A DNA stretch of 64,000 nucleotides from Podarcis erhardii (taxonomy: Eukaryota): assembly GCA_964252035.1 (NCBI GenBank), contig OZ176204.1, one strand, 5' to 3'. Positions 39,142 to 39,643 of the stretch are shown piece by piece. The first letter of the stretch is position 1. Each line of letters opens with the position of its first letter. The notes below the pieces were generated by a model. The model saw nothing but the letters and a program-made list of their open reading frames with translations. It was not told the DNA's origin and made no database searches. The position numbers were made by a program, and so were the translations under genes.

Positions 39142-39178
39142 TGGTAGCCAGAGCCAGATGGTTTCTTCGATCCATCGA
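39142..39178 (+). promoter_or_regulatory. Primer binding site complementary to the 3' 30 nt of animal initiator tRNA-Met, with three bulges
   Basis: TGGTAGC-c-AGAG-cca-GATGGTTT-ctt-CGATCCATCGA versus the reverse complement of recalled tRNA-iMet, TGGTAGCAGAGGATGGTTTCGATCCATCGA; starts 2 nt after the LTR. Confidence 0.85.
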
Positions 39179-39643
39179 AGTCTGCATCAAGGAGTGGCAG
39201 AGCTGCTGCTTCCATTGCTCCATGGAAGCCTGCAGTGAGAAAGCTGATTCTCTGCAGCCAGGAGCTGACCAGAAGAAGCTGAAAGCCAAGCTACGGAGCC
39301 CAGGTATGAGATTTTCGGGCTTAGAAGTGTGAATGCAGATTGATTCATTCTCTGCTTCGAGGGAGCAAGGTTTGGGAAAAACAGCTCCGAGAGAGGAGAA
39401 CTCTGCATTCCAAACATTCCTGCGGTTTTTCCTGTCCAAGGAAAAGGAATGCAGTTGCTTAGCAACACAGGCCAGTTTCAAGATAAGGGCTGGAAGTCAG
39501 GCAAAAACAGTTCGTGTTTTGACTAGGCCCTTAGAAAGGAACTCTTGAAAGCGACTTTGCAAGCGGCCAGTGTTAAAGCTGCCAGGTGCACAGAGTGTAA
39601 ACAAGCCAGCTATTGGATTTTAGAGGCTTGTGTTTGAGAGTCA

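Follow-up and report, generated by a model that had tools for sequence, protein, structure and literature searches.

How does a retrotransposon without a reverse transcriptase (RT) come to carry an unusually long and repeatedly interrupted complement to the initiator methionine tRNA (tRNA-iMet), and does the palindrome inside that complement have a role of its own? The question arises at a locus in a stretch of 64,000 nucleotides from the lizard Podarcis erhardii (contig OZ176204.1 of assembly GCA_964252035.1), the whole of which is referred to here as the window. A first-pass annotation had read positions 39142-39180 as a 30-nt primer binding site (PBS) in three-times-bulged form, overlapping a 16-nt near-palindrome, in an element lacking RT. 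By comparing this site with the host's own tRNA-iMet, with the other copies of its family and with RT-bearing relatives, we propose that the PBS of a young, RT-less copia family imperfectly matches the last 36 nt of tRNA-iMet, that a borrowed RT likely copies the primer tRNA in each replication round, and that the 11-nt block and the palindrome of the window copy are likely a scar; we consider this account, taken as a whole, probable.

The window element is a 4.0-kb Ty1/copia LTR retrotransposon in which TG...CA LTRs, a 5-bp target-site duplication (TSD), a PBS and a polypurine tract (PPT) are all present (Table 1); its LTRs are three mismatches and one gap apart, and the PBS begins 2 nt past where the 5' LTR ends. 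The ORF has the domain order gag-protease-integrase (PF14223, PF13961, PF00098, PF22936 and PF25597, with PF00665 below the cut-off), and a Pfam domain search of it found neither RT nor RNase H. None of the 137 independent copies described below has an RT of its own (two matches to the RT part are probably nested insertions), and the annotation of an element without RT is thus borne out by domain searches of the window and of the copies. The third acidic residue of the integrase is V in all 66 parsed of the 71 long ORFs, and the HHCC region was not found in a by-eye comparison with L105, an RT-bearing relative. The element accordingly lacks the RT, RNase H and integrase HHCC and D,D,E expected of an autonomous copia element, and the family, with many young copies that have their own TSDs, fits a non-autonomous copia mobilised in trans. 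TR-GAG and BARE-2 are likewise RT-less, gag-bearing, non-autonomous elements; unlike them, the lizard family retains protease and a degenerate integrase. An ORF of at least 800 aa is kept in 71 of the 137 copies, and dN/dS in the degenerate integrase core (window 40934-41557, ORF residues about 433-640) is about 0.23, against 0.21 in gag (six non-independent pairs); an integrase lacking the third catalytic acid and the HHCC region appears to be maintained despite being, to judge from these residues, catalytically dead.

Table 1. Positions of the parts of the window element
Feature	Position	Strand	Remark
5' TSD (5 bp)	38644..38648	+	identical 5 bases follow the 3' LTR
5' LTR, TG...CA, 491 nt	38649..39139	+	99.2% identity with 3' LTR
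Proximal PBS, predicted to pair with tRNA-iMet 76-59 (18 nt), with 1-nt and 3-nt bulges	39142..39163	+	bulge type subfamily-specific
Distal extension, predicted to pair with tRNA-iMet 58-41, with 3-nt insert and two mismatches	39164..39184	+	from alignment
16-nt near-palindrome, copy-specific	39165..39180	+	likely from tRNA-templated change of 1-2 bases
Single ORF, 891 codons: copia gag, zinc knuckle, protease, degenerate integrase, acidic tail	39638..42313	+	extends into 3' LTR
Polypurine tract	42172..42181	+	read by eye from the sequence; similar to PPT of nearest RT-bearing family
3' LTR	42182..42671	+	from LTR comparison
3' TSD	42672..42676	+	matches 5' TSD

A protein homologue search, which is without DNA context, returned only Podarcis gene-model chimeras and distant copia proteins (21-27%), and close protein relatives were confined to Podarcis lizards (the host genome is 1.5 Gb). 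Two public Podarcis vomeronasal receptor gene models (P0002 and P0003) contain pieces of the element ORF at 77-78% identity and are probably annotation chimeras. Elsewhere in the window lie a broken non-LTR-type RT on the minus strand (25299-28350, PF00078 in two frames) and a minus-strand frame of 449 codons without stops and without a Pfam match (18654-20003). A hairpin element whose arms measure 162 nt breaks into this RT near 26862-27239, and a shorter copy of the hairpin element occurs at 34488-34636.

The host tRNA-iMet was located by a motif search of the lizard's own genome, which returned 30 places; at 10 of these lies a tRNA-Met gene of initiator sequence (iMet was not identified by an Rfam tRNA search of the same genome, in which 63 of 241,536 candidates were scored). 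The ten genes (L004-L007 and L016-L021) are identical in their 3' 50 nt; they form two variants (7/10 and 3/10) told apart by a single base of the D loop region, which belongs to neither of the primer sites considered here. In what follows, nt positions run along the complement of the tRNA 3' end, the CCA complement included, such that nt 1-18 correspond to tRNA 76-59 and nt 19 faces A58. Aligned with the 3' 36 nt of tRNA-iMet, window positions 39142-39184 fall into blocks of 7, 4, 8 and 11 nt, separated by insertions of 1, 3 and 3 nt and followed by two mismatches and four more matches (nt 36 at 39184). The collinear complement that the annotation described, and its extension from the 3' end through the T arm, therefore hold against the host tRNA, with a complementarity of 36 rather than 30 nt. 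The local alignment score of the site is 46; the 2121 other 60-nt tiles of the window, on both strands, reach at most 25 (mean 12.7, sd 2.4). If paired as aligned, the distal extension would cover the T loop, T stem, variable loop and 3' strand of the anticodon stem, a putative T-arm pairing beyond the core of the kind that marks the Ty1-type extended PBS. Directly downstream, window 39194-39235 resembles a degenerate second copy of the PBS region (by eye, unscored) and ends in a 6-nt palindrome kept in 129/137 copies.

Family members were collected with an anchor-gap-anchor pattern that puts no constraint on the PBS; it gave 151 matches, one of them spurious. Sequences were taken at 144 places and at L269 and L270 (one of the remaining six came with L270), five of the 150 places being left out, and the 148 resulting rows minus 11 tandem, segmental or double-fetched rows make up the 137 independent copies; the census required two intact anchor motifs and so misses some copies. 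Nearly all copies are collinear with the window element. The match to the tRNA over nt 1-18 is perfect in 41 copies and imperfect in 96; the nt 11/12 junction is affected in 94 of the latter, and 72 show a lesion inside nt 1-11. The 3-nt insert is kept in 126/137, and bulged pairing is thus a property of the whole family, the form of the bulges varying by subfamily. The reading of the first two bulges as a tandem duplication of AGCCAG did not survive this comparison: the doubled hexamer is present in only 5/137 copies, and what forms the first bulge is one base, which varies. Past nt 18, tRNA-identical patches occur in 19 copies, 10 with and 9 without a proximal match (Fisher p 0.03), and the 11-nt block is unbroken in 15; the exact string at 39142-39180 is unique to the window copy.

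Some further features of the census deserve mention. Head-to-tail tandem copies with a common LTR exist at L115, L172 and L223/L224, with a PBS identical across the units. About one in three family matches, and many RT matches too, fall on one contig of 30 Mb (G000:C19), far above its share; it is possibly, at a guess, a sex chromosome. Four contig sets of guessed RNA origin, compared with window 38900-39700, also contain family fragments, which are uninformative on PBS allele frequency or expression.

The distribution of perfect and imperfect sites was compared with a FastTree phylogeny of the 1.6 kb of leader and gag behind the PBS, with the PBS itself excluded (126 rows, 11 interrupted rows left out; the sequences recombine). 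The perfect state requires 30 changes on this tree, compared with 32.5+-2.0 for shuffled labels (p 0.17), and the distal patch 17, compared with 17.1. Bulge type, used as a positive control, requires 10 changes against 42.4, and none of 500 shuffles was as low. Because bulge type follows it, the tree has the power to show a PBS trait that is inherited, and inheritance of that kind does not account for the tRNA-identical states. The perfect share is 16/60, 6/22 and 19/55 in the three main groups (counted by eye), departures at three distal mismatch sites go toward the tRNA base in 16/17, 12/15 and 10/11 cases, and perfect and imperfect copies do not differ in LTR divergence or ORF intactness. 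The imperfect, subfamily-specific site is the family's own state, and a tRNA-identical PBS appears, from these sequence comparisons, to arise repeatedly from mismatched parents, as in the PBS inheritance of retroviruses. Three perfect copies (L119, L220 and L236) cluster together with a support of 83, and perfect copies may on this ground propagate at times. Since nine of the 19 distal patches come without proximal correction, a simple one-way tract is insufficient, and patchy repair or recombination would be needed.

The ends of the tRNA-identical stretches bear on how they are made. In L269, 34 nt of tRNA complement are followed by a restart of the element's own site, and L194 and L270p carry short duplications. 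Among 25 sister-family loci chosen for a 16-nt tRNA match, the matching run ends at nt 18 in 17, at nt 17 in four, at nt 16 in one and further on in three. In L258 the sole mismatch lies at nt 19 and is followed by 11 matches, and the runs of L256, L257 and L263 reach nt 36, 41 and 44 (L263 with one mismatch). Within the family itself, nt 19 varies in 10/137 copies, compared with at most two at nt 17 and nt 18 (three regex artefacts removed). The base facing nt 19, A58 of tRNA-iMet, is one that we take to be m1A, an RT stop. Together with the scatter of exact matches over the tree, these ends point to copying of the tRNA in plus-strand synthesis, often past the m1A58 stop; such copying is known from retroviruses and is reported to be absent in Ty1. 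A stop at m1A58, read-through and a second stop at U54 are described for HIV-1 in passages of PMC8599865; position 54 of the host tRNA-iMet is A and not U, and the second stop described for tRNA-Lys3 is therefore absent here. The L105 family is primed by a half-tRNA (see below), and its 77 listed sites comprise 18 perfect, one intermediate and 58 mismatched (by eye, not deduplicated), a split from which overwriting appears to occur there too.

Sister RT-less families (L259, L260 and L261) carry, just behind the PBS, a sense-strand copy of the tRNA T arm and acceptor strand, which by fold-back would cover the PBS, and L260-type sites recur every ~70-95 kb on C7 near 9.9-10.4 Mb.

In the mechanism that we propose, tRNA-iMet would anneal by its 3' end across the bulges and prime minus-strand DNA with the RT of a helper; plus-strand strong-stop DNA would then copy the tRNA, usually up to m1A58 (18 nt) and at times further; strand transfer would leave the tRNA copy paired with the parental site in a heteroduplex that is resolved patchwise, with the distal block serving as the annealing place for read-through products; and corrected copies would rarely found lineages, so that the imperfect state is likely favoured. 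On this mechanism, replication is the likely moment at which the exact tRNA stretches found in about a third of the copies were copied in. Two positions, nt 28 and nt 30, set the window copy apart from its nearest relatives; it has the tRNA base at both, and thereby completes the 11-nt block and the palindrome; taken alone, its scar amounts to one or two substitutions, one of which matches a common family allele, and point mutation or recombination is a possible source.

Could the same data be had without any copying of the tRNA, the perfect site being the working ancestral form and the bulges being decay or RT slippage spread by few sources and by recombination? The mosaic LTR types of the family make recombination between copies likely, and perfect 18-nt sites are common in the sister families (at loci selected for a match). 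It is the bulge types, however, that are clade-specific, and not the perfect sites; the distal tRNA-identical bases are the own state of no subfamily; and the nt 18 junctions and the 34-nt jump-back require a tRNA template, so that we hold such a history to be improbable. Even less credit is due to the original idea that the long site out-captures a helper for tRNA while the 16-nt palindrome serves in dimerisation or as a switch. Predicted pairing is indeed strengthened by the distal block (-44 to -49 kcal/mol with all 36 nt, -23 with the last 18), many copies (116/137) have a different 6-nt palindrome at the same place, which recurs about 45 nt downstream, and candidate palindromic dimer sites near the Ty1 PBS are described in parts of PMC3592414. 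But among 145 rows compared the flagged palindrome occurs in the window and L240 only (2/137 independent copies), where it displaces the common 6-nt palindrome, and the T-arm stretch to which its 12-nt core is complementary is symmetric in the tRNA itself; it is likely incidental, a replication scar rather than a switch. As for capture, bulged alleles are predicted to pair less strongly than perfect ones, by about 10 kcal/mol with the last 18 tRNA nt and about 10-14 with 22 nt, and perfect alleles recur without spreading; because the bulges weaken predicted pairing and yet persist, the notion of stronger capture fails. Competition for one and the same primer fares no better, as the copia elements with RT that were sampled bind elsewhere on the tRNA. 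All in all, we regard the capture-and-switch idea as very improbable, and overwriting of the site by the primer tRNA as the best explanation.

The RT-bearing relatives raise a further possibility. The sample of 20 RT-bearing copia copies consisted of eight from one young family and 12 chosen for variety, drawn from the best 150 of 2139 candidates, and all 20 carry a half-tRNA site complementary to the anticodon arm (5' half) of tRNA-iMet; the PBS of this type, complementary to tRNA 40-27, is present in the RT-bearing relatives and absent from the RT-less family. The young family (L091-L098) is autonomous, with an ORF of 1338-1342 aa and LTRs 98.9-100% identical, and supplies most of the 150 listed RT matches; its half-tRNA site is likewise bulged in some copies and perfect in others. 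L105 is the nearest RT-bearing relative among the sampled copies (34% aa identity, at least 150 copies, similar LTR ends and PPT), and its family is on these likenesses a candidate helper; an RT search seeded with L105 returned only the L105 family, so that a closer helper could not show. In the protein tree the L105 family and the RT-less clade are sisters (100/100), and a half-primed clade excluding the latter is rejected (p-AU 0.0008, with long branches present).

Complement nt 37 is the first position of the half-type site in five of six loci checked (nt 36 in the other), and the block of the RT-less family ends at nt 36, as those of sister lineages with the block do at nt 36-37. That one site ends where the other starts raises priming by the leftover 3' half, in which the RT-less clade would prime on a 36-nt 3' fragment (tRNA 41-76) freed when the helper's 5'-half primer is cut; the cut position of the copia half-tRNA primer is here general background. 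This priming is compatible with tRNA overwriting and differs from it in its claim about the primer. Besides the abutting ends and the nested position of the RT-less clade among half-primed elements, it is favoured by the half-type site in all 20 sampled RT-bearing copies and in 77/77 listed sites of the L105 family, and by the absence of same-strand copia RT within 6.2 kb at 40 loci with a 3'-end site, chosen among 100 listed of 111 matches plus two from the tRNA motif search (opposite-strand RT lies near two). Against it, L257 (41 nt) and L263 (44 nt, one mismatch) pass nt 36, such that a longer tRNA was copied at least twice; tRNA 41-45 is a repeat of tRNA 3-7 and in 131/137 copies the block is followed by a base that would pair with tRNA G2 or the PBS itself, which would give the same nt 36 boundary without any cut; and the RT sample covers the best 150 of 2139 candidates, so that a 3'-primed helper may have been missed. 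We therefore think it unlikely that the leftover half is the primer. The wider proposal, that an RT-less copia clade with half-tRNA-primed ancestors took the other half of the same tRNA, that both elements tile tRNA-iMet without overlap, and that the imperfect site is kept against primer correction in ~30% of insertions, is to our minds unlikely.

Why, then, would a site that is overwritten so often stay imperfect? Correction is apparently one-way and affects about 30% of insertions per main group, yet the subfamily lesions are kept, which suggests that a copy, once corrected, makes a poorer source; the appearance of such selection against perfect sites could also come from few sources and rare activity of secondary ones. 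The weaker predicted pairing of bulged alleles with short 3' fragments, together with the strong predicted pairing that the distal block restores to a longer RNA, fits discrimination against such fragments, as proposed for mouse endogenous retroviruses (ERVs) in passages of PMC7472051. By this analogy, and going by predicted energies, we think escape from silencing by 3' tRNA fragments the most likely reason for the imperfect state. Reduced self-folding would be a secondary reason of small effect, predicted medians being -10.8 kcal/mol for native sites, -11.9 for perfect-18 sites and -15.3 for four fully matched copies.

Several elements of this picture have counterparts in known systems. For mouse ETn, MusD and IAP, passages of Cullen and Schorn (2020, PMC7472051) describe the imperfect PBS as commonest, with perfect and imperfect copies across the tree, attribute reversion to a perfect PBS to copying of the primer tRNA, propose escape from 3'-tRFs, and cite Ty1 as strictly inheriting its own PBS. 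The lizard family resembles these mouse elements in that its PBS is mostly imperfect and its perfect copies are scattered over the tree, and it differs in being a copia family, in its subfamily-specific bulges, in tracts that run past nt 18 to 34-44 and in the shuffle test; unlike the result cited for Ty1, its primer sequence appears to be inherited. With Ty1 and Ty3, as portrayed in parts of PMC3592414 and PMC5371799, it would share the same tRNA-iMet, 3'-end priming and pairing past a short core, whereas its putative pairing is collinear and adjacent over 36 nt rather than bipartite. Half-tRNA priming is described for Drosophila copia, Ty5 and the plant elements Osser, Bryco and Gymco-II in sections of PMC5371799 and PMC6317226, and the sampled lizard RT-bearing copia families, L105 included, share this site type; what sets the lizard case apart is a nested RT-less clade whose 3'-end site adjoins, on the tRNA, that of its half-primed relatives. 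In HIV-1, according to passages of Fukuda 2021 (PMC8599865), complementarity of the second strong-stop past 18 nt accommodates m1A58 read-through; that extension is 4 nt, to U54, whereas that of the lizard family is a further 18 nt, imperfect, and faces a tRNA with A54. The metazoan copia element GalEa has, in the part of PMC5445492 consulted, a 3'-end tRNA-Met site whose first 11 nt are the same as in the lizard family, whereas our protein tree places the lizard family with half-primed lizard copia.

Imperfect sites with reversion (mouse ERVs), extended iMet pairing (Ty1, Ty3) and read-through complementarity (HIV-1) have thus been described. The open-access literature, which leaves most subscription papers out of scope, yielded nothing on this lizard family, on tRNA inheritance in copia or on 3'-half priming, and as far as these searches show, three things are new: genomic evidence that a copia clade inherits primer sequence, tracts that extend well beyond nt 18, and an RT-less site abutting that of half-primed relatives.

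For the scanning of genomes these results carry a caution, in that a striking PBS feature in one copy may be a replication scar. The ~140 genomic copies form a natural record of RT's germ-line reach into a modified tRNA, with stops at nt 18 and tracts of 30, 34, 36, 41 and 44, and frequent one-way correction, set beside persistent subfamily bulges, makes a trade-off of priming against silencing testable outside mammals. Were leftover-half priming true, it would constitute a further mode of priming, in which parasite and helper share one tRNA. More broadly, the family suggests that inheritance of primer sequence in the retroviral manner is open to copia elements, contrary to the generalisation based on Ty1.
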